Below, piece by piece: positions 3,975 to 19,983 of a stretch of 19,983 nt of DNA; the stretch's first letter is position 1; each line of letters opens with the position of its first letter. Location of the stretch: IMG/VR virus record IMGVR_UViG_2529292923_000021, positions 1-19,983 of that record, one strand, 5' to 3'. Source of the DNA: a virus. Taxonomy: Duplodnaviria > Heunggongvirae > Uroviricota > Caudoviricetes. Position numbers and translations under genes: made by a program. The notes under the pieces were generated by a model, which saw only the letters and a list, made by a program, of their open reading frames with translations, ran no database searches and was not told the DNA's origin.

Positions 3975-3982
3975 TATTCCTC

Positions 3983-4510: not shown

Positions 4511-4540
4511 AAGCAACTCCATCTGGCAGGTGAAAATCAT

Positions 4541-4760: not shown

Positions 4761-4973
4761 TTGCTGATGAATAAATTGATGAAAATCATTGAAACGCCTT
4801 TCAGCAAGATAACGGCGACGGTCGTTGTTGAACTCCGTAGCTCTGCTACTAAGGTTAAAAGCATGGCCATCTTTTGCCACCGGCAAATCTTCAATGGATT
4901 TCCCCTGCCGGTTTTTTATTCCTCACATTATCGCAGCCCCTCAGTGAAGGGCTGCTGTAATGCCTGCTCTTAC

Positions 4974-5336: not shown

Positions 5337-5357
5337 AGATTCGTGTTTTTTCTCCAG

Positions 5358-5825
5358 CTACTTAATGCGCTGGGTGCGGATATATTCCTGCGCCCCTTCC
5401 AGTTGCTTCTGCATCGTCATCAACCGTTCTCTGAGGGTGAAATAATCCCGTTCAGCGGTGTCTGCCAGTCGGGGGCTGGTTGCATTATCCATGCTGGTGG
5501 GTCCGGTGGCTTCACGCACGGCTGCGGAGCAACTGGCATTGACCCGCAGGCGCTTACGACCAGCGGCAACATCAGCGCGCAGAGTTTCATTTTCAGTTTT
5601 CGCATCGGCTAACTCCTTCGTGTATTTTGCATCGATCGCAGCAACATCACGCTGACGCTGCTGCATGTCAGCGATGGTGGCGGTCGCCTGCTTCAGCTCA
5701 CTGACTTTTTTATCACGCTGTTCTTTGTAGGCGATGGCGTTATCACGGTAATGATTAACAGCCCATGACAGGCAGGCGATAATGCAGATAACCAGAGCGG
5801 AGATAATAACGGTTACCCTGCTCAT
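5358..5825 (-). CDS. Rz: Rz i-spanin (inner-membrane spanin)
   Basis: Translation [34 protein letters not shown]... is near-identical in pattern to lambda Rz. Start ATG overlaps the endolysin stop (ATGA). ORF track extends 4 codons further upstream to 5837. Confidence 0.9.
5420..5605 (-). CDS. Rz1: Rz1 o-spanin lipoprotein, embedded in Rz in another frame
   Basis: 61-aa proline-rich ORF ([30 protein letters not shown]) with a lipobox-like LVVSAC, matching lambda Rz1; fully nested within Rz in a different reading frame. Confidence 0.85.
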
Positions 5826-6319
5826 TGTTGCCCCCACAAACAGACTTCACGCTCAATCTCGCGGCGAGTCATCAGCCCTTTCCATTGCTTACCGCCAGCG
5901 TATGTCCAGCGCCGTAGCTGATCACATGCGCCTTTGATATCGCCCTGGTTTATTTTGCGAAGAAGCGTCGATGTTCTGAAATTGCCAGCGCCCACGTTGT
6001 AAACGAACGAGTAAAGAGCGCCGCGCGTTGTTTCCGGTATATCGACGTTGATGTACGGGTTAATTTGTCTGGCGACCGTGGCAAGGTCTTTATTCAGGAG
6101 GGCTTTGCATTCTGCTTCGGTATACGTTTTACCGAGCATAATGTCTTTTCCGGTGTGCCCGTAACATACAGTCCATACACCAACGATATCTTTATATGGT
6201 ATGTAGCTGACGCCTTCCAGACCATCGTTACCACTTGGGCCAGTGATTAACACAGATGCTATAGCAATAGCCCCGCCACCAATAGCCGCAGCAACGGCTT
6301 TTCGTAATGATGGAGGCAT
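5822..6319 (-). CDS. R: SAR endolysin (phage 21 R21-like lysozyme)
   Basis: 165 aa with a Gly/Ala-rich N-terminal signal-anchor-release segment ([18 protein letters not shown]) followed by a lysozyme domain; directly after the pinholin with an overlapping start and stop. Confidence 0.9.
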
Positions 6320-6534
6320 TATTCACCTCTCGCAGCCTTACGCTTGTCTTCTCTGATTTTGAAGTACAGATTTGTCAGGTAAGTCAGAAAGCCCAGAACC
6401 AGACTTCCCAGCACACCAATCGCAGCCCACTGTGACGGACTGACCTGATCAAGCCACTGTAAAAACCAGTAGCCAGCACTACCAGCGGATGTTCCGTAGG
6501 CAATGCCAGTAGAGATTTTGTCCATTGATTTCAT
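6319..6534 (-). CDS. S: Pinholin / antiholin (phage 21 S21-like), dual-start motif Met1-Lys-Ser-Met4
   Basis: 71-aa [34 protein letters not shown]... with two transmembrane segments and a charged C-terminus; matches the S21 71/68 dual-start arrangement, first gene of the lysis cassette. Confidence 0.9.
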
Positions 6535-6858
6535 AGCAACGCCTCCGCCAGTAACGGATTGCGTAGTTCTTATATTGGGAAGGGGAAAAAAGAAGGCCGC
6601 AGCGTAACTATCACTAATAAATTCAGGACAGCCAGTGGCTACGGCTCAGTTTGGGTTGTGGCGGCCGGAATCGAACCGGCTTCCATCGGTGCGCTGCCGA
6701 TTGCAGTACGCGCGGCGGTCAGCTATATGACTAGTATTTTCACTATCGCCTATCTGCTAGCTCGCCATTGAGCTTCACCACAACGATAAGAGCACTGCGC
6801 GGCACCTTTCACCAATTCCGCGAGGTCTGCGGGTTCAATGCTCTTACCTGTTGTGCAG

Positions 6859-6895
6859 AAAAAAAACCACACGGCAGCGAGTTTAAGCTGTGTGG
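6859..6895 (-). terminator. Intrinsic terminator on the minus strand (hairpin followed by T8)
   Basis: On the minus strand, GCCACACAGC...GCTGCCGTGTGG forms a stem with a perfect 6-bp CCACAC/GTGTGG core, followed immediately by eight T residues (plus-strand A-run 6859-6866). Confidence 0.45.
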
Positions 6896-6998
6896 CGAAG
6901 TTACCTCTCTTCACCAAGTATTCGGTAATAAAATAACTTGTGGTGTTCTCGTTTTTATGCCGATAAAATAAACGGTCCACTTTCAAATGGAGCGATTC

Positions 6999-7919
6999 AT
7001 GATTTTTCTCAGAACTGAAAACGGCATCGAGAAACTTGAAAACTGGGAGGAAATTATATCCAGACCAAACTTTGTCACCACTATAGACAAAGGAGTTCAA
7101 CAACTTGAGGAGATAATTGGTTACTACAAATTTAAAGAAGAAATCCACTGTGGTCTAACTGGTTGCAACCAACCACATCAAATGGGTTATATTGTAAAAA
7201 CATCTAGTGGCATTGAAACCAACATCGGAAATAAATGTGGTAAAAACGAATTTGGTGTGGAATTTGGTGAAAACGTTCTTAGTTTCAATAAATTTATGCA
7301 ACTCGAAACCAATCGGGAAATTATTAGCACCGCAAAAAGTAAATGTGAAGCGTGGCAAAAAAATATTGAAACGATACGAAATATCAAACCCACAATAGAT
7401 TATCTATCTTCTACCATCGAAAATAGTAAAAATTCCAATTACTCCGGAAGACTTGGTGCTACAGAAATTCGTTTTTTGACCAAGAACCAGACAGGCCTTG
7501 TAACCCTTTCTGAAGTGGAAACTGATAAGAATACCAAAACAATTCTGTTCGCAATGAATGAACACATGCGCGAGTCTGGAGAGGCAATAAGTGAATTCTA
7601 CATAGGAAAAGTATCATTTAGTCATGTTCTTTTACCAGAAAACAATCTTCGTGATTTTTTTGTTGCGCTCAAAGAAGATCTAAAAAAAATTCAGTGTATT
7701 GATCTACAAACAGCCCCAAGCCCAGAAATTTCTAATGTTGCCAAAATTGCCAGTTCAATCGAAGAACGAATCAAGCGATTAAAAAAACTGAAACATGAAG
7801 CCAGTAAATTCCTAACTAAAAAAAATCTGCGTCCCATCGCAAACAAAATAAAATACTCATCGACAGCGGATGAACTTGAATTCCATAATTTCGAACGCTT
7901 TTTAAAAGGGCTGAAATGA
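6999..7919 (+). CDS. Hypothetical protein, AT-rich accessory gene antisense to the late operon; function unknown
   Basis: 306-aa ORF (310 aa from the upstream ATG at 6987) with GGAG 6 nt upstream of the ATG at 6999. Base composition is visibly AT-rich compared with flanking late genes. Sits between Q and the holin on the opposite strand and ends at a hairpin terminator. Contains a small Cys/His cluster (HCGLTGCNQPH...CGK); no recognisable catalytic motif. Confidence 0.7.
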   Translation: MIFLRTENGIEKLENWEEIISRPNFVTTIDKGVQQLEEIIGYYKFKEEIHCGLTGCNQPHQMGYIVKTSSGIETNIGNKCGKNEFGVEFGENVLSFNKFMQLETNREIISTAKSKCEAWQKNIETIRNIKPTIDYLSSTIENSKNSNYSGRLGATEIRFLTKNQTGLVTLSEVETDKNTKTILFAMNEHMRESGEAISEFYIGKVSFSHVLLPENNLRDFFVALKEDLKKIQCIDLQTAPSPEISNVAKIASSIEERIKRLKKLKHEASKFLTKKNLRPIANKIKYSSTADELEFHNFERFLKGLK

Positions 7920-7939
7920 TAAAAGCCCCGAAAGGGGCT
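7917..7939 (-). terminator. tR'-like intrinsic terminator downstream of the late promoter; also closes the plus-strand gene
   Basis: AGCCCC-GAAA-GGGGCT hairpin at 7924-7939. On the minus strand it is followed by TTTTATCA, a good U-tract; on the plus strand the trailing T-tract is weaker. Confidence 0.55.
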
Positions 7940-7978
7940 TCTATCAAAATCATTTACGCATTATTCCGCATGCTTAAA

Positions 7979-8008
7979 AGAATACATGACAGATTCGGAC
8001 AAAATCAA
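7979..8008 (-). promoter_or_regulatory. Candidate late promoter pR' (minus strand) just downstream of Q
   Basis: On the minus strand, TTGATT (-35, 8008-8003) and TGtATTCT (extended -10, ending 7979) are separated by 18 nt. Position relative to Q and the downstream hairpin fits the lambdoid pR'-tR' layout. Hexamers picked by eye. Confidence 0.3.
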
Positions 8009-8033
8009 GTGCAATGTCGCAAAAACCCTAAGC

Positions 8034-8864
8034 TTAGTTCACATCATCACCAAAACTTGTCACATTCTGAAAAGCAATATCGGCCTTACGCTCTTCCTGG
8101 TGGCAAATGTCAACCAGAGAATCAAGAAACGGCTTCCAATTACGCGTCCATGTCCTGACATGTAGCTCGGGTATCCGCTTCAGTACAACTTTATATACTG
8201 TGGTAGACGGTACCGTGGAAAATCCATTTCCGCTGCAACGTTCGCAGATTTTAAACACTGGCACACCACGCTCGCTTGTGGCTTTGCGGTCCAGTACCTC
8301 TCCCTTTCCACCACAACGACACCTGGCACTTATCACTCCCTTCCCTTTACATACATCGCAAACGACTGGTACAACTTCCGTTACCTCTGTCCATTTCTCC
8401 CAGTCTGACGGTCGAACAGCACGGGAGCGACTGGCCCAATATGGTGCTTTACCCCATGGGTATGAAACCTTACGAATGACCTGCTTACGGGGTGTTAGTC
8501 CGGTACCACTGCAACTATGGCATGTTACGCTGGTGTCCGCCGATCGGGAATACTCAGCAAAAGCAAACTGCGCCAGTACCAGCATACACCAGCCAAATTC
8601 ACCACCAGCTGCTTTACGCACATTCTTCGGTGCAATTTCCATCGCGTGACGCGCCAGCGCTTGGACTGCCATCTGCTCATCAGTCTTGCTGATACCGGCC
8701 TTCCCGAAGAAGGCCGCCAAGCCAAACCGTTCACGATTGCTGGTGGTACCAATAGCCGCCATAACATCGGTGCCTGTAAGACGTTCCGGAGAGGTTCCTT
8801 TCACATCGTCGCCGATATACATTCCCTGAGGACTGAAGTATTTTAGCGATGCCTCAAGCTTCAT
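8034..8864 (-). CDS. Q: Late-gene antiterminator Q (long Q82/Qin-type)
   Basis: 276 aa with several CxxC zinc-finger-like clusters (CHSCSGTG, CDVCKGKG, CRCGGKG, CERCSGNG); located immediately upstream of the late promoter/terminator and lysis genes. Confidence 0.65.
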   Translation of the reverse strand: MKLEASLKYFSPQGMYIGDDVKGTSPERLTGTDVMAAIGTTSNRERFGLAAFFGKAGISKTDEQMAVQALARHAMEIAPKNVRKAAGGEFGWCMLVLAQFAFAEYSRSADTSVTCHSCSGTGLTPRKQVIRKVSYPWGKAPYWASRSRAVRPSDWEKWTEVTEVVPVVCDVCKGKGVISARCRCGGKGEVLDRKATSERGVPVFKICERCSGNGFSTVPSTTVYKVVLKRIPELHVRTWTRNWKPFLDSLVDICHQEERKADIAFQNVTSFGDDVN

Positions 8865-9718
8865 TATTCACACTCCCCAACCAGATTAAGAATAACCGCC
8901 GCGCCATTGTCTTTCATATATTCGCCCTTTCCGCTTGCCAAAAACCAACGACACACCTCCACTGCTTCAGCCCGTGTCACCGGTTTGATGGTCATCAGCA
9001 ATTTTTCAAGGTAGCGCTCGCGGTCATATACCGATTCGTGATGCTCAGAGTAACCATACTCATCGCCCTGTTCTTTAGACGCAGTGTGGCGAACACTGTA
9101 GAGCCAGTCCCAGTAAACAAACTCACGAACTACGTCTGACAATGTATGAGGCTCTGGCAGTACATCACGATAGCCATCAACATATGCACGACGCTGATCA
9201 TCAATTTCATTCATACGGATGCCATCAATTCTGCCCGCTGTCTTCTCGGCTGCAGTCCAGCCCCAGAGATGATCGTCGATAAATTTCTGGGAAGACTTGA
9301 TCACTCGCTCGGCTTCCACATCTTCGAGTGCTGCTTCATAGCTACCAAACGTAGCCCTGACTGATGTTGCTTTTTTGATATTCTCCCGGGCGATCCTGAT
9401 TGCCTGTGCCGGGTTATCCATGCCGATGGTACCGAAAGCAATCTGGAAAGGATCACCACCATTCGCCAGCAGATAACGCGAATAGCGTTCCTGGGCCTCT
9501 TTTGGGGAAATTTTAATTTTCACCAGCGCAGCCTCAGCATCCAGATGTGCGGGTTCGTTCAGACGGATAACCTCCAGCACCCAAAGATAAGCATCAGTCT
9601 GCTTATGCCCGGTGATTCTCCGTTGCTCTGGCAGGGGCTTGATGTTTGCGAGGGCGGAGCTGTACGCTGCCGTCGGGATGGTGAATAGTGCTTTATGTTC
9701 GTTGTTATCAGTACGCAT
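8864..9718 (-). CDS. Hypothetical protein (284 aa), function unknown
   Basis: Long ORF with a start overlapping the Q start region, in the position of nin/replication genes; no motif recognised. Confidence 0.65.
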   Translation of the reverse strand: MRTDNNEHKALFTIPTAAYSSALANIKPLPEQRRITGHKQTDAYLWVLEVIRLNEPAHLDAEAALVKIKISPKEAQERYSRYLLANGGDPFQIAFGTIGMDNPAQAIRIARENIKKATSVRATFGSYEAALEDVEAERVIKSSQKFIDDHLWGWTAAEKTAGRIDGIRMNEIDDQRRAYVDGYRDVLPEPHTLSDVVREFVYWDWLYSVRHTASKEQGDEYGYSEHHESVYDRERYLEKLLMTIKPVTRAEAVEVCRWFLASGKGEYMKDNGAAVILNLVGECE

Positions 9719-9843
9719 TACGCAACCGCCTTTTTCTTATGGAAAACCAGCTCTCGAACCTGATCACCGTTCATGAGCATATTGTTGAAATCATCGTGAT
9801 CCGGCCAGTACACGCTCACGCGCTGCAGGTCATTCTTTGCCAT
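9718..9843 (-). CDS. Possible small ORF (41 aa) overlapping the helicase stop; alternatively the tail of a frameshifted longer protein
   Basis: ATG at 9843-9841 overlaps the helicase stop; the tail MAKNDLQRVSVYWPDHDDFNNMLMNGDQVRELVFHKKKAVA looks protein-like. The same frame is open back to 10038. Confidence 0.3.
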   Translation of the reverse strand: MAKNDLQRVSVYWPDHDDFNNMLMNGDQVRELVFHKKKAVA

Positions 9844-11224
9844 CAGATTGGCATGAGCACATTCGCAAGCCGCAGCCAGCCCGGTGGCGCTGATAAAATT
9901 TGATCTGACTCCACCAGGACTGTTTCTCTGCCTTCGTCGACTGATGCTGATTTTTACCCAGCTTATTAAGTTTGCGGCTAGTGTCAGTATCAACGTCTTC
10001 ACCTCGCAGCGGCTTGTGTCCACATTTCGGGCAAACATAGACGCCAGCTGGCTTCATGTAGTGGCATTGAGGGCATTCATGTGGCAGTTTTTCGGCCCGT
10101 TCCTCAACTGCGCGGCGCGCGCTTTCCTCCATGCCATCAGACTTACCGGGAAGATCGTCGTACTCGATTGAATCCGGATAACCCAAACGGTGCACGGTGC
10201 CGCTGTGATCGAAGATAAGGCAGGACGCTTTACCCGGTGCGGTGCGCAGCCCACGCCCGAGTGCCTGCAACCAGCGAATTTCGCTTTTTGTTGGCCTGGC
10301 GTAGATGATGCAACGAACGTCACTATCGAATCCGGCTACCAGAACGCCCACACTAACGATGATTTTCGTTGCACCGGTTTCAAAGCGGTGAATGATGGTC
10401 TGGCGCTCATCTACCGGAGTGTCGGCGGTCATTACCTCAGCGTTAACACCCGCCAAGTTAAACTGGATTGTCAGATAATTGGCGTGAGCTACGTTGACGC
10501 AGAAAGCGATGGTAGGTAGATCCCGACCATTCTCCAGCCAGTTCTGTACGATGTCGCCCACCAGCGTAGAGCCGCACATGATTTCAGCCAGCTGTGTTTC
10601 GTTGTAATCGCGGCCGTACTCAAGCGAAGATGTGGTTTTAACACCTTTCAGATCCGGCTTAGTTGGCGCGTAAAATTCGTATTTACTCAGATCGCCACGC
10701 TGGATTAACTCGCCGATGGTGGTCGGCTTAATCAGTCGGTCATAGTATTTGCCCAGGAACGGAGAAAACGGAGTACCCGACAGGCCAATCACCTTTACGC
10801 CTTTGCCGCGCAGACGTTCGATATCCTTCAGGATGCGTTTTTTACGCAGGTGCGCTTCGTCGATAATCAGCAGATCGATATTTTCAGGAAAAACACGACG
10901 AATAAGCGTGTCAGCGCTGGCAATCTGAATTTTCCGGTCCGGATCGTAGTTCGGGTGATCCGCCCAGATATAACCGATTTCATCTCCAGGTAAACCATAC
11001 TGCACGAACCGATTAGCCGTCTGACCAATCAGGATGGTGTACGGAACACAGAACAGAACACGCATACCACGGCTGACAAAACCAGCAACTATGAAGGCTG
11101 CCAGACCCGTTTTACCGCTACCTGTTGGCGAGTAAACCATGAAGGTGTCGTTTGCCTTCCAGTCACGGCGCAACATGTTTAGCGCTCGCTCCTGTGCAAA
11201 ATTCGGCGTGATTGTCAGCTGCAT
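9830..11224 (-). CDS. Superfamily-2 DEAD/DEAH-box helicase with C-terminal zinc ribbon
   Basis: Walker A SPTGSGKT, motif II IIDEAH, motif III SGTP, motif VI QALGRGLR, and a C-terminal CPQCHY...CPKCGH zinc ribbon. Confidence 0.85.
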   Translation of the reverse strand: MQLTITPNFAQERALNMLRRDWKANDTFMVYSPTGSGKTGLAAFIVAGFVSRGMRVLFCVPYTILIGQTANRFVQYGLPGDEIGYIWADHPNYDPDRKIQIASADTLIRRVFPENIDLLIIDEAHLRKKRILKDIERLRGKGVKVIGLSGTPFSPFLGKYYDRLIKPTTIGELIQRGDLSKYEFYAPTKPDLKGVKTTSSLEYGRDYNETQLAEIMCGSTLVGDIVQNWLENGRDLPTIAFCVNVAHANYLTIQFNLAGVNAEVMTADTPVDERQTIIHRFETGATKIIVSVGVLVAGFDSDVRCIIYARPTKSEIRWLQALGRGLRTAPGKASCLIFDHSGTVHRLGYPDSIEYDDLPGKSDGMEESARRAVEERAEKLPHECPQCHYMKPAGVYVCPKCGHKPLRGEDVDTDTSRKLNKLGKNQHQSTKAEKQSWWSQIKFYQRHRAGCGLRMCSCQSDGKE

Positions 11225-11274
11225 TGTGCTGTCCCCGCAGTGATGAGATAATAATTTTGTGATGTGGTTTTCAT
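11215..11274 (-). CDS. Putative 19-aa upstream ORF / leader peptide overlapping the helicase start
   Basis: GAGGAGG sits 5 nt upstream of the ATG; MKTTSQNYYLITAGTAQCS ends 10 nt inside the helicase ORF. Confidence 0.25.
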   Translation of the reverse strand: MKTTSQNYYLITAGTAQCS

Positions 11275-11335
11275 GGATTCCTCCTCACATGGCTGGTGGT
11301 CTCCCCAAAGGCTGCCAGCCCCTTTCCGAATCAAC

Positions 11336-11704
11336 TCACTTAAATTTCGTCGCACGAATAACGTCAATTCCGTTCTCGCTATATCGAAGAGGGTGCTTAC
11401 CATCCCTGAGCAGGACAAAGCCTGACATCCCCTCAGGTAGCTGAGCCAGCTTCATCAACGAACGGTTGCGGGGAGACTTCTTATCGACCTCAATGGCACA
11501 CTGCTGGCCGTCTGATGATGTAACCAGGCAATCAATAAACCCTTTACGACCACCGCTAATGCTGATGCTGAAATTGCGTTGCAGATGGTATCCCTGAGAC
11601 TTGATTTTTTTCTGCATCACATAATCGAAAACGACTTTGTCATCGGAGCGAATGAATTGCTCTTCCAGGAGAGTGATTAAATTTTGCTTCAGGTCTTCAC
11701 TCAT
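11336..11704 (-). CDS. Hypothetical protein (122 aa) with a possible PD-(D/E)xK nuclease-like motif
   Basis: GFIDCLV followed 13 residues later by CAIEVDKK resembles the D...(D/E)xK arrangement of the restriction-endonuclease fold; this is a weak pattern match only. Confidence 0.55.
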   Translation of the reverse strand: MSEDLKQNLITLLEEQFIRSDDKVVFDYVMQKKIKSQGYHLQRNFSISISGGRKGFIDCLVTSSDGQQCAIEVDKKSPRNRSLMKLAQLPEGMSGFVLLRDGKHPLRYSENGIDVIRATKFK

Positions 11705-11953
11705 ACTTTTTTATCCATCTTGTACTAGCTTTCTGGTACAGCCGTTTTTTCAGGGGTATCCCCCTTTAGATCGAGATCTACCTAACCTATGTACCCGTCT
11801 GTTGGAAAAGCCTGTTCCAGTGCTTCGCACTAACACACGGGCACTCCTCCCCCTCCCCTCCTCTCATTGAATTTTGTGCGTACTCTTTAACTAGTACAAA
11901 AATGCAATGAGATTTGGGATTCAGCCACCGGACACCTTTAAGCCCGGTACCAA

Positions 11954-12247
11954 TCAGGAGCGCGATTGCGTTCCTGCCAGGGGCGGCTGAGTTGTATACC
12001 CCTGTAAAGCTCTGCCCTGATTTCTCACAAACAAGCGGAGCCTTGTGTTTGCTTCGTGCCTTGCTCTGTTCTCCTTGCGGAATGAAACAGGCTCAGCGTC
12101 AAAAGTGATTTCGTATACCTCCGCATATTTCAGGGCGACCTTCCGTCTCAGTGACGGAGGCAGCCCCTGTAACTGCTGCTGAATCCACTCTTCGTCTGCC
12201 TGGCAGTGCCTAGATGGCATCTCTGTCTGAACGTAATTCTGGGACAT
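11954..12247 (-). CDS. Hypothetical protein (97 aa), in the cII position
   Basis: ORF begins 13 nt after the cro-like stop on the same strand; no similarity to lambda CII recognised. Confidence 0.5.
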   Translation of the reverse strand: MSQNYVQTEMPSRHCQADEEWIQQQLQGLPPSLRRKVALKYAEVYEITFDAEPVSFRKENRARHEANTRLRLFVRNQGRALQGYTTQPPLAGTQSRS

Positions 12248-12259
12248 ACAAGCCCTTCA

Positions 12260-12532
12260 TCATTCGTTTTTCATAACTGCCGCATTTGTGGCTGTGTGAC
12301 TTCTACGTAACAAATCAGGGATTGCATCTTCAGGATGGGGATAAAGATCTGGTCTTAACCCATGAGGAGTAACTTTCCATTCCACAACTTCACATACACG
12401 CAAGACGAAACGAGCAGGAATTGTTCTTTTTGAAAACCATTGGTTCACAGCTTGCGGCGTAACGCCTAGATTTCGCGCTATGGCATTTTGTGCAATTAGC
12501 TCACGAAGTGCGTCGTAATCATTTCCTTTCAT
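12260..12532 (-). CDS. cro: Cro-like HTH regulator (YdaS/Cro family)
   Basis: 90 aa with an HTH (NLGVTPQAVNQWFSKRTIP) and a C-terminal LRPD motif typical of YdaS/Cro-family proteins; divergent from the cI-like gene; GGTGGG upstream of the ATG. Confidence 0.7.
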   Translation of the reverse strand: MKGNDYDALRELIAQNAIARNLGVTPQAVNQWFSKRTIPARFVLRVCEVVEWKVTPHGLRPDLYPHPEDAIPDLLRRSHTATNAAVMKNE

Positions 12533-12666
12533 CGCAACCCACCAATCTAAACTTTATAAATTCAAGATTACATCAAGTTTAAATTAACATGCAAGTCCAC
12601 AAAAGATCGAATACACTAAAATCAAGTAAAAATTTATCGAAACCAAGTAACCAGCAAGGATTAACA
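12533..12666. promoter_or_regulatory. cI/cro divergent promoter-operator region (OR-like)
   Basis: 134-bp AT-rich intergenic region between divergent repressor genes; the motif ATCAAGT recurs at 12572-12578 and 12621-12627. Confidence 0.5.
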
Positions 12667-13356
12667 ATGAAAAACTTAAAGAGCACTGAAAATCGAATTA
12701 CAAAGCTGCTACAGGAGAAAGGCTGGAGCCAAGCAGAGCTGGCCCGAAAATTAGGTGTCAGCGCACAGTCCGTACAGTACTGGACAACAGGAAAAACATT
12801 TCCAAGGGGAAACCGGCTTGCCCAGTTATCCGAAATAAGTGGTTATCCGCAATCGTGGTTTTTAGGAGAAATCACGTCACGGCAGTTCTCTTCAAAGGAA
12901 AAACATCAAGCAAGAACTGACAGTGTGGTCTTTAACGTGCTCGATGTTGAGTTTAGTTGCGGCGATGGAACACATGTCCGTGGGGACTTTATCGATGTAG
13001 TTCGCTCAATCGAGCTTGATCCTGAATATGCCCGTCGCCTTGTTGGCAATAGAGCATTTCAAAACATAGAGATTGGTAACGCAAGAGGAGATAGTATGGC
13101 TCCAACAATAGCCCCAGGAGATCTTCTTTTTCTCGATAAAACAGTGAATTACTTTGATGGTGATGGCATTTATGCTTTTTGCTTTGATGGTGAATGCTAC
13201 GTCAAAAGATTACAAAAGATAGGAAGTAAAATCATGGTGTTATCTGATAACCCAAATTACCAATCCTGGAGCATTGAAAAAGATGCTCTTGAGCTGCTTT
13301 ATATCCAATCGAAGGTAATCTCATCTGTTCCATTCAATATAAATAGATTTGGTTAA
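12667..13356 (+). CDS. cI: cI-like repressor (HTH-XRE plus S24 LexA-like peptidase domain); alternative upstream start at 12589
   Basis: N-terminal HTH (GWSQAELARKLGVSAQSVQYW), C-terminal S24 autoprotease motifs (GDSMAPT with the catalytic Ser; VKRL with the Lys). AAGGA lies 8 nt upstream of the ATG at 12667. Confidence 0.9.
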   Translation: MKNLKSTENRITKLLQEKGWSQAELARKLGVSAQSVQYWTTGKTFPRGNRLAQLSEISGYPQSWFLGEITSRQFSSKEKHQARTDSVVFNVLDVEFSCGDGTHVRGDFIDVVRSIELDPEYARRLVGNRAFQNIEIGNARGDSMAPTIAPGDLLFLDKTVNYFDGDGIYAFCFDGECYVKRLQKIGSKIMVLSDNPNYQSWSIEKDALELLYIQSKVISSVPFNINRFG

Positions 13357-13418
13357 TTATTGATTATTAAAGAAAAATTTACAAATCAAGTAAAAGAGAC
13401 GCAGAAATCAATTTTTTC

Positions 13419-13448
13419 TTGACAACTCCATCAATCAAGATCTAACAT
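13419..13448 (+). promoter_or_regulatory. pL-like early promoter
   Basis: TTGACA (13419-13424), 18-nt spacer, TAACAT (13443-13448); flanked by ATCAAGT-type motifs at 13385-13391 and, inverted, 13465-13471. Confidence 0.45.
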
Positions 13449-13450
13449 CA

Positions 13451-13497
13451 CACCATCAATTTTGACTTGATTTATTGTTAATTTTAAATTGATGGTG
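13451..13497 (+). repeat. Perfect 12-bp inverted repeat in the 5' leader of the first early gene
   Basis: CACCATCAATTT (13451-13462) and AAATTGATGGTG (13486-13497) are exact reverse complements; the 3' arm contains the GGTGA Shine-Dalgarno of the ORF starting at 13503. Confidence 0.8.
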
Positions 13498-13502
13498 ATT
13501 CA

Positions 13503-13931
13503 ATGAAAGATCTGACAACCGCTGAGATATCGAACTTAAACCACTTCGAAAAAGAATCCTTTGCATTAAATATTGCAAATCTGGTAGGTGCTGCTCGTAC
13601 TTTCCATTTAATTGATGGTGATCGCTCTAAAGAATTGGGGTTTGAAGTCATGGAGTTTGTTCATGAATACGCCCTGTCTGCTACTTATCCATTACATAAT
13701 CACATAATCAACAAACAACCAAATAAAATCCGCACCCAACGCGAAGCCTGCGGCTTAACAACCGCCGAACTCGCCAGGCTGCTCGATCTCGATGAAGAAA
13801 TTATCATCCAGTGGGAAAGCGGAGAGTACGAACCAACCATCAGCATGCTTATCCCTCTGGCTAATGTTCTTGGCTGTGATCCAATGTTGTTATTGACTGA
13901 TGCTTATAAACAAAATCAGGAGGAAGCATAA
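13503..13931 (+). CDS. HTH-XRE domain protein (142 aa) with an N-terminal extension of unknown function
   Basis: C-terminal HTH (CGLTTAELARLLDLDEEIIIQWESGEYEPTISMLIPLANVLGCDPMLL); first gene after the pL-like promoter. Confidence 0.75.
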   Translation: MKDLTTAEISNLNHFEKESFALNIANLVGAARTFHLIDGDRSKELGFEVMEFVHEYALSATYPLHNHIINKQPNKIRTQREACGLTTAELARLLDLDEEIIIQWESGEYEPTISMLIPLANVLGCDPMLLLTDAYKQNQEEA

Positions 13932-13932
13932 G

Positions 13933-14124
13933 ATGAAAATGTTCAAAGGCCTTACCAACGAACCGGAGACAGCTTTTCATCACATTGCCGTACTGCTTGA
14001 AGCGGGGTTAATCATTTCGGCTTCCGGTGATGAAGAATGTGATGAACTTTCGGATGATATCTTTTTACTGGCACAACAATACGCCAAAAGCGCATGCGAT
14101 GCATTTAAGGAGCAAAGAACATGA
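13933..14124 (+). CDS. Small acidic protein (63 aa)
   Basis: AGGAAG 7 nt upstream of the ATG at 13933 (ORF track gives a non-ATG start at 13900); acidic composition. Confidence 0.55.
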   Translation: MKMFKGLTNEPETAFHHIAVLLEAGLIISASGDEECDELSDDIFLLAQQYAKSACDAFKEQRT

Positions 14125-14312
14125 TAACTCCATTAAATATTCTTGAGGAAGTGGCGGCACAAATAAAAGAGAATACATCAATGCTTGAATTTATATTTAA
14201 GAATTCGCCCGACCAAGGAGAGACAGACGATTATTTATGCTGTCTCATTCGCTCCATGAATAAGACCTGTGAAATGGCTTACGAGTATATAGAAACACTA
14301 CGCAACGAATAA
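14121..14312 (+). CDS. Small acidic protein (63 aa)
   Basis: ATGA start/stop overlap with the preceding ORF; acidic composition. Confidence 0.55.
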   Translation: MITPLNILEEVAAQIKENTSMLEFIFKNSPDQGETDDYLCCLIRSMNKTCEMAYEYIETLRNE

Positions 14313-14394
14313 AGAACACTCAGTAAAAAATCACACATAAAAACATGACGGCCTCTGGTCGTGGATTTCCACAACCAGAAAATAATGGTGATGC

Positions 14395-14493
14395 ATGAAA
14401 AATAGAAACGCTTATAAAACCGCATTATTAATGGCTAATGCAGGATACTGGTCAGTTGCAATACTGTTTCTCAGAAAAGCATACGGGAAATAA
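14395..14493 (+). CDS. Putative small hydrophobic peptide (32 aa)
   Basis: GGTGA 4 nt upstream of the ATG; MKNRNAYKTALLMANAGYWSVAILFLRKAYGK has one hydrophobic segment. Below the ORF-track length cut-off. Confidence 0.3.
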   Translation: MKNRNAYKTALLMANAGYWSVAILFLRKAYGK

Positions 14494-14496
14494 CAA

Positions 14497-14856
14497 ATGG
14501 CATGTACAACCATTTATAAAGATCGTCGCCGCATGGTAACAGCGGCACTCCGGCGGATGCAACGTAAAACAGGTAGTAATCTGCTCGTCGTTGACCTCCC
14601 GGACGGAGAAATAACAACGATAGAAATAACTGAACAGTTCATGAACCAGTTGTTATTACGATTTGAGGGTCTTACCCGTGTTGAATATGGACGGACGGAA
14701 GGAGAAGCAACAATCCGTACCGCATACCAGAATGCCATCGGTATTAATCAACACACGGAATATCTCACTGAATCAGGGAAACTGATAGTGGACGGCCTTT
14801 TAAAAGAGGTTGTTGACTACGTAAAAGAGAAATATATCAGTGGAGGAATTAACTGA
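14497..14856 (+). CDS. Hypothetical protein (119 aa)
   Basis: ORF in the early operon, tightly packed with its neighbours; no motif recognised. Confidence 0.55.
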   Translation: MACTTIYKDRRRMVTAALRRMQRKTGSNLLVVDLPDGEITTIEITEQFMNQLLLRFEGLTRVEYGRTEGEATIRTAYQNAIGINQHTEYLTESGKLIVDGLLKEVVDYVKEKYISGGIN

Positions 14857-15065
14857 TGTCTGATTTATCCCCTCTTATACACGAAAAAGTACAGATCATT
14901 ATGACGATTGAAAATGGTCAGGTAATAAATACCCGTAAAGTTCACAATAACGAGATGATTGCCAGCATGGATACCTTCTTATGGATAGCAAAGAAAGCGG
15001 GATATCAGGTAATCGCTCCTGATCTGGAGGAAATCGGTGACATTAACAGCAATACGAATTCCTGA
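14856..15065 (+). CDS. Hypothetical protein (69 aa)
   Basis: Start overlaps the previous stop (ATGA-type coupling). Confidence 0.5.
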   Translation: MSDLSPLIHEKVQIIMTIENGQVINTRKVHNNEMIASMDTFLWIAKKAGYQVIAPDLEEIGDINSNTNS

Positions 15066-15258
15066 GTGGGTGCACCTGCAGGCGGTCCGTGTTCTCCGCC
15101 AGTTCAGAGCCAGACGAATTCATCCCTGTCGTATGCACGGCTCCGGAAACCTGAGTCTGAGGGTTAATCGCCGCTGGCGGCTGCTGTCCCGAGACGGCGG
15201 CCAGAACTGGGAAGTAATGAGCCATGAACGATACAGCAAAGTTAAGGACCGGAAATGA
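15037..15258 (+). CDS. HigB/RelE-superfamily toxin-like protein (73 aa, GTG start); possibly truncated at the N-terminus
   Basis: IHPCRMHGSGNLSLRVNRRWRLLSRDGGQNWEVMSHERY resembles the HigB core LHPLKGDREGYWSITVRANWRITFQF...DYH (recalled from memory). GGAGG lies 6 nt upstream of the GTG at 15037. Locally GC-rich compared with its AT-rich neighbours. Confidence 0.4.
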   Translation: MTLTAIRIPEWVHLQAVRVLRQFRARRIHPCRMHGSGNLSLRVNRRWRLLSRDGGQNWEVMSHERYSKVKDRK

Positions 15259-15288
15259 ACAATAAACCTTCAAACCAAAAGGAGAGTA

Positions 15289-15870
15289 TTGATGATTAAT
15301 TCAACCATTACCCCTGAACCTACATTAACAGGCATCCGTTTTGGTAATCGAATTATTGGTTATTCAACTGCGGTTCGCCAGATCGACAACGGTAACTATG
15401 ACAAACGAATTCCGGACGGGCTCGATCTGATAGCTTGCATTATGGAAGGGATTGAAAGCGGCTGGTTTATGCCGTGTATTGAAAAACAAATCATCCTATG
15501 GCGCTGGCTTGTTGTCGCCGTGTTCATTGCTGAGGAGCAGGAGAAGAACGGGACTGTCGATGTTCAGAATGACAAGGGCGGCGTAGATACAGCCGTTGTA
15601 TACACAGGAAAACCCGGTTCAATCAGCATTTATCCATGGTCTGAGCGCTTCGCGCTCGCTAACCATATCGAGGCGGGCGCAATTGAAAAATACGGGCCTG
15701 ACGTTGGCCAGCAGATGGCGCTGCGTATGTATCAGGACATGGTTGTAACTGACGAGAAATGCGGATTCAGGCTGTCAGCGATGGGCCGGGAGGGACTCAA
15801 CATACTACATGACAGCTTCATTGAACTGATTCAGAAAGACGGTATGCCAGACATGCCGGTTATGCACTGA
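15289..15870 (+). CDS. Hypothetical protein (193 aa)
   Basis: AAGGAGAG Shine-Dalgarno upstream of the ATG; no motif recognised. Confidence 0.65.
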   Translation: MMINSTITPEPTLTGIRFGNRIIGYSTAVRQIDNGNYDKRIPDGLDLIACIMEGIESGWFMPCIEKQIILWRWLVVAVFIAEEQEKNGTVDVQNDKGGVDTAVVYTGKPGSISIYPWSERFALANHIEAGAIEKYGPDVGQQMALRMYQDMVVTDEKCGFRLSAMGREGLNILHDSFIELIQKDGMPDMPVMH

Positions 15871-15881
15871 GGTGGACGAAA

Positions 15882-16628
15882 ATGAACATAGTAACGATCA
15901 ATAACAAACAGCTTCCGGCAGTCGAATATCGCGGTCAGCGTGTTGTGACGCTGGCGATGATTGATGAAGTCCACCAGCGACCGGAAGGAACAGCGCGTGC
16001 AGCATTCAACCGAAACCGTGAGCATTTCATCAGCGGTGTGGATTATGCCGAATTAGGTGCGGACGTAATACGTACGGACCTCCCGGAAGGAACATTCTCT
16101 AAATTTGCACCATCAGGGATTGTACTTTTTGAATCAGGTTACCTGATGTTGACGAAGCCATTCAATGACGCCCTTGCCTGGCAGGTTCAGCGCGAACTGG
16201 TTAACAGCTACTTCCGCACTCGCACACCGCTAACGGAAATCGAGATGATCGCTGCGATAGCCGCCGACGCTGTTCGTCAACAGAAGCGCCTGAATCATGT
16301 GGAAGAACAGCTCGAAACAGTCACAGAAGCGGTGGAAACCATCAAACGCGGAAATATGCGCGCCGGATATGTCGGTTATCGCCAGGTGGTCGCCAAAAGC
16401 GGAATGACTGATGCTAAGTGCCGCAATCTGGTCAATGCCTACAGCATCCCAACCGATACGCACGAATTTATGACACCAGATGGTCTTCTTTCGCGCCGGG
16501 CTATCGTGGAGCTGGAGCCATTCATGAAAGCATTTCATCAGATGATGTCAGAGGCAGAGCCACGTGGTACCCGCTGGTATCACCCGAAGATGGGGCTGTT
16601 TCAGGTGATTGGTTGGGAGGGTAAATAA
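15882..16628 (+). CDS. ORF6N-domain protein (KilA-N superfamily; Rha/antirepressor-like)
   Basis: N-terminal GQRVVTLAMIDEVHQRPEGTARAAFNRNREHFISGVDYAELG matches the ORF6N pattern QRVxT...NFNRNKERFxEGKHY (recalled from memory). Confidence 0.6.
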   Translation: MNIVTINNKQLPAVEYRGQRVVTLAMIDEVHQRPEGTARAAFNRNREHFISGVDYAELGADVIRTDLPEGTFSKFAPSGIVLFESGYLMLTKPFNDALAWQVQRELVNSYFRTRTPLTEIEMIAAIAADAVRQQKRLNHVEEQLETVTEAVETIKRGNMRAGYVGYRQVVAKSGMTDAKCRNLVNAYSIPTDTHEFMTPDGLLSRRAIVELEPFMKAFHQMMSEAEPRGTRWYHPKMGLFQVIGWEGK

Positions 16629-16966
16629 TGTCACTCATTACACAAAATTTCCGCCTCAATGCGCTGGCAAATCAGTATGCGGCGGCACTGCACAACCACA
16701 TATCCGCCACCAGCGGTGGTCATTTCCTGATTAATGTCAATGGGCAATCCATACGAGTAAACATCATCGGTGGGGTTAAAGGCATCAGGGACTTAATCGA
16801 TGGTTATGCTCTGAAGGCTATCAAAGAAAATTACCCCCAATGGGAAGCCGTTGGTATTCAACTGTTAAGCAAATGCGTTCGTGGAAACGAGCTGACGCAA
16901 AGCGGCAAAGAAATCTGGCAGAGCATGGTCAACGACATGAGCGATACCGTTATGGGGAACATGTAA
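16628..16966 (+). CDS. Hypothetical protein (112 aa)
   Basis: Start overlaps the previous stop; no motif recognised. Confidence 0.55.
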   Translation: MSLITQNFRLNALANQYAAALHNHISATSGGHFLINVNGQSIRVNIIGGVKGIRDLIDGYALKAIKENYPQWEAVGIQLLSKCVRGNELTQSGKEIWQSMVNDMSDTVMGNM

Positions 16967-17188
16967 ATGAAAATCCAATACCAGGACTATGGCGCCGTAG
17001 CGAACATCGTGATCACCAGTTCCTGCCTGACATTGCAAAAGCATAACCGCGTTGTTGATGCGGTGCTGTTTAATGTACAGGGGATCTCTGAAAACCGCAG
17101 CGGCTTTTTCTGGGTTAAGTCATCGTTGTCAGGAAAAACACGCGACATCCTGCGCGCCTACAAAATCGTACAGCGGGAGGCAAAGTGA
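16967..17188 (+). CDS. Hypothetical protein (73 aa)
   Basis: Begins one nucleotide after the previous stop. Confidence 0.5.
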   Translation: MKIQYQDYGAVANIVITSSCLTLQKHNRVVDAVLFNVQGISENRSGFFWVKSSLSGKTRDILRAYKIVQREAK

Positions 17189-17283
17189 TGAAGTCATTCC
17201 TCCTGTCCATACTGTTTAGTCTGCTGCTGGCGTCCGTCGTTTTCGGTACGCTGATTGAATATAAATTTTTAATGAATTACTGA
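17188..17283 (+). CDS. Putative small membrane peptide (31 aa)
   Basis: ATG overlaps the upstream stop (GTGATGA); MKSFLLSILFSLLLASVVFGTLIEYKFLMNY contains a single predicted transmembrane helix. Confidence 0.35.
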   Translation: MKSFLLSILFSLLLASVVFGTLIEYKFLMNY

Positions 17284-17465
17284 GGTGCGGGGTGGGCAAG
17301 ATCAAAAACCCAGTTGTACTTATCCATAAGCGAGAAAATAGTGACTCCTACGCCGTTACAATCACCTGCGGTAGCCAGAACTATCACGACGCCGTTCTGA
17401 TGGCGTCGATGGAACTGGATATGAGTGACGATGATGTCGATACCTAGAGTAAAACAGGCTATTAC

Positions 17466-17921
17466 ATGGCTGAAGAAATCGAGCGACTGAAACAAGCACT
17501 TTCCGCTGCGGAAAATAATCTGATTGATTCCGAATGCCTCGTAGCTGAATTAAGCAAAGCAAAGGATCACGCATATGGGCTGGTCGACACATACGACTGG
17601 CAACGTCAGCGTCTCCACGCAGCCGCTGAGAAAGTCCTCAAATGGTGCAGACAAGAAGCTGAACACCGTACCGGCGATCCAGAGAAAGCAGAAAACTATG
17701 CGTGCGTTAAAGAACTACGCGACGCATTAACTTTTTGCAAAAGTTCTGAAAGCAGCAAGAAGAAAGGCCTGACTATCACCCTGCCCGATATCACATCAAA
17801 GGCATTCTGGAGCGGTACCGGAAAAAACGCAAAATTCCATCCGGCAACCTATAAACGCTGGGTGAAAGAAGCTATTAAACGGGATTGTGTTATTGCCGGG
17901 ATCGGCGTGGAGGTGAAATGA
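17466..17921 (+). CDS. Hypothetical protein (151 aa) with a coiled-coil-like N-terminus
   Basis: ORF in the early operon; no motif recognised. Confidence 0.6.
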   Translation: MAEEIERLKQALSAAENNLIDSECLVAELSKAKDHAYGLVDTYDWQRQRLHAAAEKVLKWCRQEAEHRTGDPEKAENYACVKELRDALTFCKSSESSKKKGLTITLPDITSKAFWSGTGKNAKFHPATYKRWVKEAIKRDCVIAGIGVEVK

Positions 17922-18004
17922 TGAATTGGCCTGAAGCATTCACCGCAGTAGGAGTTGCAATAGCGGTGGCATTTATTCTGTATTCGCTTTTCCGCTGGGG
18001 ATAA
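17918..18004 (+). CDS. Putative small membrane peptide (28 aa)
   Basis: ATG overlaps the upstream stop (ATGATGA); MMNWPEAFTAVGVAIAVAFILYSLFRWG contains a single hydrophobic helix. Confidence 0.35.
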   Translation: MMNWPEAFTAVGVAIAVAFILYSLFRWG

Positions 18005-18008
18005 AGGA

Positions 18009-18251
18009 ATGTTCGCTCTGATTCAACGTGGTCAGATATACACCGATAGTGCTGGCTACCCGATAAAAATTATTCGCTGCATAAACAACACTGTGTTGTA
18101 CAGAAGAATGGATGGGCGAACACAGTCGGTAAAAATAAACGATTTTAATGAACTGTTTGAACGGATCGATCACCAGGAATACCGACAAATTCTGGCAGAA
18201 ACAGAGCAGGAAGCTCATCTGAAAAAATTACGAGCCATGAAAAGGAAGTAA
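18009..18251 (+). CDS. Hypothetical protein (80 aa)
   Basis: AAAGGA Shine-Dalgarno upstream; basic C-terminus. Confidence 0.55.
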   Translation: MFALIQRGQIYTDSAGYPIKIIRCINNTVLYRRMDGRTQSVKINDFNELFERIDHQEYRQILAETEQEAHLKKLRAMKRK

Positions 18252-18254
18252 AGA

Positions 18255-18401
18255 ATGAATAAAGCATTTGAACGATGGGTCCACCAGCGTTACGGCAATC
18301 GCTATGACCTGACACGAGATGTTGACGGTTTCTACTGTCGTGAAATTGTGAAACGAATGTTTGAAGTGTGGTGCCACTGCCGTGGGCTGAGTGTTGTGTG
18401 A
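18255..18401 (+). CDS. Hypothetical small protein (48 aa)
   Basis: AAGGAAG 7 nt upstream of the ATG at 18255; below the ORF-track length cut-off. Confidence 0.4.
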   Translation: MNKAFERWVHQRYGNRYDLTRDVDGFYCREIVKRMFEVWCHCRGLSVV

Positions 18402-18408
18402 GGTTGGC

Positions 18409-18663
18409 ATGCAGACAATCATCTATCAGATAACCCCCAGCAAATGGTGTACGGAGAGAGTCCTCATTGCATCAACAGGGCTAAAGCCTGGCACCATTGA
18501 GCGGGCAAGAAGAAAGTCATGGATGCAGGGAAAAGAATACCGCCATTACGCTGTAGAAGGTGATCCGGGGCACTACAGTGAATGCCTGTACAACATCGAA
18601 GAAATTATGCGATGGATCGAAAACCAGAAACAACCAGGTGCCAAAAATGCAAGTTCCGGTTAA
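18409..18663 (+). CDS. xis: Excisionase-like protein (putative Xis); ORF track start at 18391
   Basis: Small basic protein immediately upstream of the integrase on the same strand; called by position and size. Confidence 0.5.
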   Translation: MQTIIYQITPSKWCTERVLIASTGLKPGTIERARRKSWMQGKEYRHYAVEGDPGHYSECLYNIEEIMRWIENQKQPGAKNASSG

Positions 18664-18696
18664 CCTGTTAATGCTCCTGGACGTCTGGGAGGTTTA

Positions 18697-19983
18697 ATGA
18701 GTAACGCATCATACCCGACAGGCGTTGAAAACCATGGAGGATCACTCCGTATATGGTTTCACTATAATGGCAAACGTGTCAGAGAAAACCTCGGTGTTCC
18801 TGACACAGCCAAAAACCGGAAGATCGCTGGTGAACTTCGCACTTCCGTTTGTTTTGCAATCAGAATGGGGAGTTTCGACTACGCCGCGCAGTTCCCTAAT
18901 TCCCCTAACCTGAAACACTTTGGTCTGGGAAAAAGAGAGATAACCGTTAAGGCACTTTCGGAAAAATGGTTGGACCTTAAGAAAATTGAGATTTGTGCGA
19001 ATGCACTTAACCGTTACCAGTCAGTAATTAAAAACATGTTACCAATGTTAGGTGAAAAAAAACTGGTTTCATCCATAACAAAAGAGGATTTACTTTTCGT
19101 AAGGAGAGATTTGTTGACCGGTTACCAAAAGCTTTCTAATGGAAAGACTTCTTCCATAAAAGGGCGCTCAGTGGTCACGGTAAACTACTATATGACAACC
19201 ATAGCTGGAATGTTTCAATTTGCAACAGATAATGGTTATACCTCAGGAAACCCATTTAACGGTCTGGCTCCCTTAAAAAAGTCCAAGGTAAAACCAGATC
19301 CTCTCACCCGTGACGAATTTATTCGTTTTATTGAGGCTTGCCGTCATCAACAAACAAAAAACCTGTGGATTCTCGCTGTATACACGGGTATTCGTCACGG
19401 GGAGTTGGTATCGCTGGCATGGGAAGATATAGACCTTAAAGCAAGGACTATAACCATCCGTAGAAATTATACAAAACTTGGCGAATTCACTCCACCAAAA
19501 ACCGATGCAGGCACCGGAAGGACAATTCATCTGGTTCAACCAGCTATTGATGCTCTTAAAAGCCAGGCGGAAATGACCATGCTTGGAAAGCAACATTCTG
19601 TAGAGGTGAAGCAGAGGGAATATGGGAGAACTGCTGTGCATAAATGCACTTTTGTTTTTAGTCCTCAGGTAACAAAACAGCAGCAGTTGTCCGGACCTCA
19701 CTACAAGGTTGACTCCATCAGGGAGTCATGGACAAGTATCTTAAAACGCGCAGGTCTGAGACACAGAAAATCGTACCAATCCAGGCATACTTATGCATGC
19801 TGGTCACTTGCCGCAGGAGCTAATCCTAGTTTTATCGCAAGCCAGATGGGCCACACAAACGCACAAATGGTATTCAATGTTTACGGAGCATGGATGAAAG
19901 ACAACAATCACGAACAGATAGAACTCCTTAACAAAAGACTATCTGAAAGTGTCCCATGTATGCCCCATAAGAAAGTTGGGTAA
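18697..19983 (+). CDS. int: Tyrosine site-specific integrase (phage integrase family)
   Basis: 428 aa; catalytic-domain motifs include IRHGEL, HxxR-type SRHTYACW and the C-terminal Tyr region NVYGAWM. Last gene of the early operon; its stop codon is the last three bases of the window. Confidence 0.9.
   Translation: MSNASYPTGVENHGGSLRIWFHYNGKRVRENLGVPDTAKNRKIAGELRTSVCFAIRMGSFDYAAQFPNSPNLKHFGLGKREITVKALSEKWLDLKKIEICANALNRYQSVIKNMLPMLGEKKLVSSITKEDLLFVRRDLLTGYQKLSNGKTSSIKGRSVVTVNYYMTTIAGMFQFATDNGYTSGNPFNGLAPLKKSKVKPDPLTRDEFIRFIEACRHQQTKNLWILAVYTGIRHGELVSLAWEDIDLKARTITIRRNYTKLGEFTPPKTDAGTGRTIHLVQPAIDALKSQAEMTMLGKQHSVEVKQREYGRTAVHKCTFVFSPQVTKQQQLSGPHYKVDSIRESWTSILKRAGLRHRKSYQSRHTYACWSLAAGANPSFIASQMGHTNAQMVFNVYGAWMKDNNHEQIELLNKRLSESVPCMPHKKVG

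Follow-up and report, generated by a model that had tools for sequence, protein, structure and literature searches.

The DNA described here is a 19,983-nucleotide (nt) stretch of a caudoviricete genome (IMG/VR record IMGVR_UViG_2529292923_000021, positions 1 to 19,983), called the window below, and the subject is a 73-amino-acid (aa) open reading frame (ORF) located at 15037-15258 on the + strand. The ORF is a real, intact, and strongly conserved phage gene under strong purifying selection. Its product belongs to the Pfam family PF24732 (ParE_like) and is predicted to adopt a minimal fold of the RelE/ParE type. The gene lies within the equivalent of the lambda pL-type early-left operon of a phi467-like lambdoid prophage, and the comparative data do not support a dedicated, conserved antitoxin partner for it. 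By analogy, the protein is tentatively read as a repressor-silenced, stand-alone early effector that would most probably cleave RNA.

The 73-aa protein matches the PF24732 model ("ParE-like toxin domain") with 70.8 bits and an E value of 9.9e-20 over model positions 2-67 of 67; the curated gathering threshold of this model is 24.4 bits. This is the sole significant Pfam match of the protein, and the model is matched by 48 of 48 diverse relatives too. The protein also matches PHROG 1525 (3e-27). A profile search run exhaustively over 1.84 billion representative proteins returned only 112 clusters, nearly all of which are 65-85 aa in length. Because the whole family is short, the 73-aa protein is a full-length member and not a truncated HigB. 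A preliminary description, made from the sequence of the window, had stated that about 20 N-terminal residues of canonical HigB are lacking; the protein is indeed shorter than HigB, but the difference is a property of the family and not a truncation.

Sixty-three distinct copies of the 222-nt gene were compared. The ratio of nonsynonymous to synonymous polymorphism (pN/pS) in the 73-aa frame is 0.09, and this frame is open in all 63 copies. Variable sites fall at 65 third codon positions versus 15 second positions. In the other five frames, pN/pS is 1.6-4.7 in four and 0.30 in one antisense frame, which is never open. A 76-aa antisense ORF (15043-15273) is open in 31 of the 63 copies, with a pN/pS of 1.6. 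Relatives are encoded in at least 546 IMG/VR loci (contigs) and are carried by 47 species-representative genomes, nearly all of them from Enterobacterales, and a survey of 5426 complete E. coli genomes found the 73-aa gene itself in 20. A scan of positions 12000-19983 against Rfam returned no match. The window shares 99.9% identity with Escherichia phage phi467 (LN997803), in whose record the ORF (positions 4638-4859 there) is unannotated.

This missing annotation, the GTG start, a length shorter than that of HigB, and the presence of the antisense ORF are what could be cited for a chance ORF, a decayed HigB remnant, a non-coding GC-rich element, or an antisense 76-aa gene, but such a reading is refuted by the full-length matches to the protein's own Pfam and PHROG families, the pN/pS of 0.09 in a frame open in 63 of 63 copies (the antisense ORF being open in only 31, at 1.6), and the empty Rfam scan, and it has practically no chance of being correct. 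The gene is conserved in related prophages, where the preliminary description had named a lack of conservation as a point against its reading, and the option of a degraded toxin given there does not hold for a gene under strong purifying selection that matches its family model from end to end.

The ORF begins with a GTG codon, preceded by a GGAGG Shine-Dalgarno sequence at 15025-15029 (+), 7 nt 5' of the GTG and within the upstream 69-aa ORF (14856-15065), which overlaps the 73-aa ORF by 29 nt. Homologues begin at the same codon, in most cases with ATG, and the GTG start is therefore considered right. The G+C content is 0.554 (150-nt windows reach 0.61), compared with 0.48 for the whole window, 0.39 for the upstream gene, and 0.486 for the downstream gene. 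The same pattern is seen in 125 related loci, where the median G+C of the ParE-like gene is 0.554 versus 0.475 for the flanks and the gene is the richer of the two in 114. The protein has an isoelectric point (pI) of 11.9 and contains 14 Arg among its 73 residues, and part of the G+C excess is due to this Arg-rich composition. The position, length, start codon, Shine-Dalgarno sequence, overlap, and local GC-richness given in the preliminary description all agree with these measurements.

An AlphaFold2 model of the 73-aa protein, built on a 36-sequence alignment, has a mean predicted local distance difference test (pLDDT) score of 89.4. It contains a strand (2-5), a helix (10-24), three strands (39-42, 47-51, and 57-62), and a C-terminal helix (63-71). 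The predicted fold is thus a strand, one helix, a three-stranded antiparallel sheet, and a C-terminal helix, which would be a minimal version of the RelE/ParE type. In Foldseek searches, YoeB, YafQ, RelK, GraT, and Cami1 dominate the top ranks, with E values of 0.1 or worse and template modeling scores of about 0.5. With these moderate statistics, the model supports membership at the level of the RelE/ParE superfamily, as the preliminary description had proposed. The N-terminal strand is kept, and one of the two canonical N-terminal helices of RelE and HigB is missing. In an hhalign alignment with Proteus vulgaris HigB, the missing helix corresponds to an 11-residue deletion. The HigB sequence used was checked against 4mct_B, and that of YoeB against 2a6q_E.

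An alignment of relatives with 25-95% identity shows that Arg48 is invariant and that Ala16, Leu49, His63, and Tyr66 are kept in at least 90% of the sequences. The family motif is WRLLS..G..W.LMSHE.YN. The active site of YoeB includes Glu46, Arg65, His83, and Tyr84, and the catalytic residues of P. vulgaris HigB are His54, Asp90, Tyr91, and His92. All four of the latter are invariant in the HigB alignment A7. Arg48 is aligned by hhalign to Arg73 of HigB and Arg65 of YoeB. The C-terminus was left unaligned by hhalign; an ungapped alignment made by hand pairs Tyr66 with Tyr91, Arg65 with Asp90, and Ser67 with His92 of HigB. By their order in the sequence, His63 and Tyr66 would lie where the last strand ends and the C-terminal helix begins, the region in which YoeB, HigB, and RelE hold catalytic His, Tyr, or Arg. 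This placement, and that of the conserved Arg, His, and Tyr on the face of the sheet and the C-terminal turn, is read from the alignments, the secondary structure, and the published active sites, and not from the coordinates of the model.

The branch of the superfamily to which the protein belongs is less clear. Pfam HigB (PF05015) gives no match to the 73-aa protein at E values up to 10 and matches 1 of the 48 family members, at an E value of 0.031. A profile-profile comparison by hhalign with a 25-sequence HigB alignment gives a probability of 17% and an E value of 0.0015 over 24 columns. Membership in HigB was rejected, as the single-sequence and profile-profile alignments are only local (24-46 columns, probability 14-17%). 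The comparison with YoeB gives a probability of 4%. Pfam ParE_toxin (PF05016) likewise does not match the 73-aa protein and matches 1 of the 48 relatives, at an E value of 0.042. The sequence comparisons thus leave the branch undecided. The HigB label of the preliminary description, which expected a partial match in a HMMER search with the HigB profile, is not borne out.

The 73-aa protein differs from the ribosome-dependent mRNA interferases HigB, RelE, YoeB, and YafQ in being about 20 residues shorter, in having one N-terminal helix instead of two, and in lacking a significant profile match to them; the position equivalent to His54 of HigB is variable in PF24732, and no antitoxin of the HigA, RelB, YefM, or DinJ type adjoins the gene. 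From the ParE poisons (ParDE, PaaA2-ParE2, PrpT) it differs in having no partner of the ParD or PaaA2 type, and the conserved C-terminal His and Tyr of PF24732 are closer to the ribonuclease (RNase) branch. The gene is to be filed under PF24732 and the RelE/ParE superfamily, as neither HigB nor ParE.

It is already cataloged in Pfam, PHROG, and RefSeq, although uncharacterized, and does not represent a new kind of system. RefSeq applies the name "ParE family toxin-like protein" to 100%-identical E. coli copies, and a 99%-identical cluster bears the same NCBI name. The records of related phages list a hypothetical protein, and homologues elsewhere are annotated as "mRNA interferase" or "putative toxin antitoxin system protein". 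In the literature, the one mention that was found is a passing label of "HigB-like protein" for the homologues of two Serratia phages (PMC7556043). A literature search found no paper mentioning PF24732, no functional study of the family, and no experiment supporting the "ParE" in its name. NCBIfam and PADLOC gave no match for the 73-aa protein or its neighbors, and the anti-defense families gave none for the 73-aa protein.

Searches of the PDB with the sequence and the family profile returned only chance matches of an Asp-box-like kind. Residues 51-58 (15187-15210) form an Asp-box-like S-x-D-x-G-x-x-W sequence (SRDGGQNW) in the hairpin between the last two strands. This motif produces weak matches to BNR/Asp-box Pfam models in 12 of the 48 family members and spurious PDB matches to Ycf48. 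In three longer proteins (P0133, P0152, and P0163; 198-226 aa), a C-terminal ParE_like domain follows about 135-160 N-terminal residues to which it is fused and which have no Pfam match.

The features of the window that surround the gene are as follows.

12260-12532, - strand: Cro/YdaS-like gene in the Cro position, divergent from the CI-like gene
12667-13356, + strand: CI-like repressor gene (HTH_3 and Peptidase_S24)
13419-13448, + strand: sigma-70 promoter-like site (TTGACA-18-TAACAT, 10/12; a consensus match only), presumed to be pL-like
13503 to ~17200, + strand: densely packed small genes that in many cases overlap, including the ParE-like gene and an ORF6N anti-repressor gene
14497-14856, + strand: PHROG 1737 gene, 119 aa; 1 nt is shared by its stop codon and the start codon that follows
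14856-15065, + strand: PHROG 340 gene, 69 aa, acidic (pI 4.8)
15063-15065, + strand: TGA stop of the upstream ORF, formed where the ParE-like gene encodes its conserved Pro9-Glu10 (CCT GAG)
15289-15870, + strand: PHROG 1515 gene, 193 aa, acidic, after a 30-nt gap behind the 73-aa ORF
18391-18663, + strand: excisionase gene (DUF1233)
18697-19983, + strand: tyrosine integrase gene, which with the excisionase gene ends this run of + strand genes

The region is the equivalent of a lambda early-left operon because the CI-like gene is proximal and the excisionase and integrase genes are distal on the same strand. Early-left genes of lambda are silent in the lysogen and are expressed early after induction. 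In the window, the CI-like repressor is presumed, from this layout, to silence the operon in the lysogen. No terminator-like site was found on the + strand between the promoter-like site and position 17046. The possibility that the gene belongs to a moron cassette was considered and rejected, as no promoter or terminator of its own was found flanking the 73-aa gene. The - strand also contains genes for a helicase, a gpA-type large terminase, and a lambda-type portal. The gene in the Cro position matches Pfam PF15943 (YdaS_toxin) with an E value of 5.8e-13, which is better than its match to P22_Cro; YdaS of the Rac prophage, a member of the PF15943 family, is reported to be a repressor-controlled toxin (PMC5700373).

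For the 193-aa ORF downstream, the start assigned mechanically is the TTG at 15289; the ATG directly after it, at 15292, has a AAGGAGAG Shine-Dalgarno sequence before it and is the more likely one. This ORF is single and intact in the window. In LN997803, the PHROG 1515 gene (region 4890-5470) is split into two coding sequences (CDS), which suggests a frameshift or a sequencing difference. Neither neighbor of the 73-aa gene matches a helix-turn-helix (HTH) or other Pfam domain, in line with the preliminary description. An AlphaFold2 model of the 69-aa protein (pLDDT 79.5) consists of a beta-hairpin, a helix, and a disordered acidic C-terminal tail, and has no match in the PDB.

The neighbors of the gene were compared in 131 loci: 83 came from phages or IMG/VR and 47 from genomes, and the remaining one is the window. 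PHROG 1737 is found in 111 of these, PHROG 340 in 74, and PHROG 1886, a protein of about 137 aa whose gene is absent from the window, in 60. They occur in the following combinations.

1737 and 340: 53 of 131 loci
1737 and 1886: 36 of 131 loci
1737, 340, and 1886 together: 20 of 131 loci
1886 only: 3 of 131 loci
1737 only: 2 of 131 loci
1886 and 340: 1 of 131 loci
none of the three: 16 of 131 loci

Homology between 340 and 1886 was considered as the reason for an apparent mutual exclusion of the two and was rejected: hhalign gives an E value of 0.17 and a probability of 0.4%, and the exclusion vanishes in the wider set, in which 20 loci have both. In four loci (L011, L065, L085, and L104; ~2550-3030), two tandem, divergent 340 paralogues lie directly upstream of the ParE-like gene.

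The flanks of closely related copies also differ. The copy in AsXd-1 (96% aa identity) lacks the 340 gene, and another (locus L045, 93%) lacks both 340 and 1886. Conversely, a widespread Salmonella prophage retains 1737-340-1886-like sequence in which the ParE-like gene has left no trace. In Salmonella loci L134 and L135 (2501-3113), the 340 gene is followed directly by the 1886-like sequence with an ATGA overlap; no gene is called there, possibly because of a frameshift. This junction looks like the site of a clean loss of the ParE-like gene, or one where it was never inserted. The 29-nt overlap itself is a by-product, because the TGA of the upstream frame sits in the conserved Pro9-Glu10 codons: the upstream frame always terminates there, and unrelated upstream genes show the same overlap. 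In roughly one in four of the 340 homologues sampled, the C-terminal tail expected from the overlap is absent.

No antitoxin-type domain (HTH, ribbon-helix-helix, Phd/YefM, or AbrB) was found in the neighbors, and the preliminary description had likewise recognized no partner antitoxin. A type II toxin-antitoxin (TA) system is defined by an adjoining antitoxin that is conserved with the toxin, and here the neighboring families vary. Since near-identical copies have different flanks and the neighbors change from locus to locus, a dedicated, conserved antitoxin is not supported by these comparisons. A lineage-specific partner could still exist within the lambdoid group. The suggestion that the 69-aa or the 193-aa neighbor is a dedicated novel antitoxin is not supported either, as both are dispensable beside 93-96% identical copies and the 69-aa gene is widespread without the toxin-like gene. 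Among the three options that had been offered (an orphan or degraded toxin, a neighbor acting as a novel antitoxin, and a phage-co-opted mRNA interferase), the phage-co-opted one fits best.

The relatives in more distant elements have other neighbors. Those of Serratia adjoin a ParB-like gene (a label also found in the record of phage OS31) and a gene that by sequence resembles 3'-phosphoadenosine-5'-phosphosulfate reductase. In Xenorhabdus, Pectobacterium, and Brenneria (loci L120-L130), the relative lies between a DUF2857 gene and a gene of about 440 aa, and is 84-105 aa when taken as the longest ORF listed. The ~440-aa product resembles an STY4528-type island replication protein; if this likeness holds, these relatives would belong to the backbone of an integrative-element family and would not be phage genes. 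The 62 CDS of phage Sortsne include no integrase; in this phage and in Murrayvirus KMB41, the relative is found beside two small genes of unrelated kinds that precede the lysis cassette. Copies 73-96% identical to the 73-aa protein are present in AsXd-1 (L003, Aeromonas), EKP1 (H8, Elizabethkingia), and a contig of Chryseobacterium sp. 18061 (L105). They sit inside typical enterobacterial prophage modules, and the AsXd-1 match is 93% at the DNA level, so that the non-enterobacterial host labels, or the purity of the cultures, look doubtful.

The function proposed for the 73-aa protein, which we prefer with some reserve, is that of the stand-alone early effector introduced above. The operon would be repressed in the lysogen, leaving the gene silent, and the product would be made early upon induction or infection. 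It would act alone, without a cognate protein antitoxin, as a ribosome- or RNA-directed endoribonuclease that uses Arg48, His63, and Tyr66, with Glu64 in addition, and may inactivate host or early phage mRNAs. A harmful or potentially harmful early gene that is kept silent by the prophage repressor is exemplified by lambda Kil. The RacR/YdaS-YdaT genes of the Rac prophage provide a similar case, with silencing by a repressor and not by an antitoxin (reported for RacR-YdaS in PMC5700373). The folds of YdaS-YdaT and Kil are unrelated to that of the 73-aa protein, and CI repression in the window is presumed. The best functional analogy for a stand-alone phage protein with a RelE fold is T4 RegB, an early phage RNase with a RelE/YoeB fold that inactivates mRNA and for which no antitoxin is known (PMC3014915); this is an analogy and not a shared membership.

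Several observations weigh against this proposal. The sequence links to the catalytic RelE-type families are weak (hhalign probability 4-17%), and position 29, the hhalign equivalent of His54 of HigB, varies across the family. The curators of Pfam named PF24732 after ParE, and no experiment on any member of the family was found. Within the lambdoid group, one or another of PHROG 1737, 340, and 1886 is close by at almost every locus (115 of the 131), and the tight overlap with the acidic 69-aa gene resembles a TA arrangement. Finally, the evidence for CI repression consists of gene order and a consensus promoter match only.

The two points concerning the neighbors also bear on the foremost alternative, in which the 73-aa protein is a classical type II toxin and its antitoxin is an adjoining small acidic protein (340 in the window, and 1886 or 1737 in other lineages), the pair serving to stabilize the prophage or to abort superinfection. 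The gene order would be antitoxin-first, and the 29-nt overlap together with a Shine-Dalgarno sequence inside the upstream gene suggests translational coupling. The 69-aa protein resembles many antitoxins in its acidity (pI 4.8) and in a C-terminal tail that is predicted to be disordered, and 82 of the 83 closest loci have 340 upstream or 1886 downstream, with at least one of the three families in 115 of 131. However, the overlap is forced by the TGA in the Pro-Glu codons and is seen with unrelated upstream genes, 93-96% identical copies exist without 340, without 1886, or without both, and the presence of all three genes in 20 loci indicates that the apparent mutual exclusion tracks lineage. 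Further, 340 (with 1737 and 1886-like sequence) is common in Salmonella prophages that have no toxin-like gene, 340 and 1886 show no detectable homology, and 16 distant loci, Sortsne, and KMB41 have entirely different neighbors. An addiction module would also be of little use in a lytic operon that is presumably repressed. A type II pair is therefore considered unlikely.

A ParE-like protein without catalytic activity, which would bind and poison DNA gyrase or another host protein during early lytic growth, is a rather improbable alternative. ParE is a gyrase poison and not an RNase. The name of the Pfam family and the absence of significant similarity to RNase families would fit such a role, as would the wealth of protein inhibitors of host functions in early-left operons, to which lambda Kil and Gam belong. 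Nevertheless, ParE_toxin matches just one of the 48 members (E 0.042), the most conserved Arg, His, and Tyr are the kinds of side chain found in the active sites of RelE, YoeB, and HigB, and a pI of 11.9 fits binding to RNA or the ribosome.

Little weight is also given to the view that the protein is a non-toxic derivative with a RelE fold and a new task on mobile elements, for example in counter-defense or in regulating the early genes of its own element by binding RNA or the ribosome. The gene occurs on three kinds of element (temperate phages, a phage without an annotated integrase, and elements with island-type genes alongside), always in early or regulatory strings and never with an antitoxin; its fold is reduced by one helix, and it is fused in places to N-terminal domains with no known match. 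These features would suit such a derivative. Positive evidence for an activity of this kind is nil, the conserved Arg, His, and Tyr are better explained by catalysis, and PADLOC and the anti-defense families are unmatched.

If the effector reading is extended from the 73-aa protein to the family, PF24732 could be a distinct, antitoxin-free class of minimal (~70 aa, one-helix) RelE-fold endoribonucleases that are expressed early by temperate phages, integrase-less phages, and island-type elements of Enterobacterales and that reprogram translation. Such a class would act in host shut-off or in the turnover of the element's own early mRNA, with the repressor of the element in control and no protein antidote, and would be the counterpart of T4 RegB in temperate phages. 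This broader view is a possible one, and we consider it doubtful.

A protein of the RelE/ParE fold is usually taken for one half of a TA pair, and the 73-aa gene is labeled in this way by annotation pipelines. The comparative data show a subfamily that is widespread on mobile elements and strongly constrained, lacks a fixed partner, and is located in lytic or early operons. The interest of the finding is modest and lies in three traits: an antitoxin is consistently missing, the fold is reduced, and the setting is that of early operons or mobile elements. If the protein is inactive or non-toxic, it would be another conserved small phage gene without an assigned role. If it is an active nuclease, a miniature enzyme of the RelE type would serve temperate phages as an early effector, and prophage surveys would need to avoid treating genes of this sort as "orphan TA toxins" or as defense modules.
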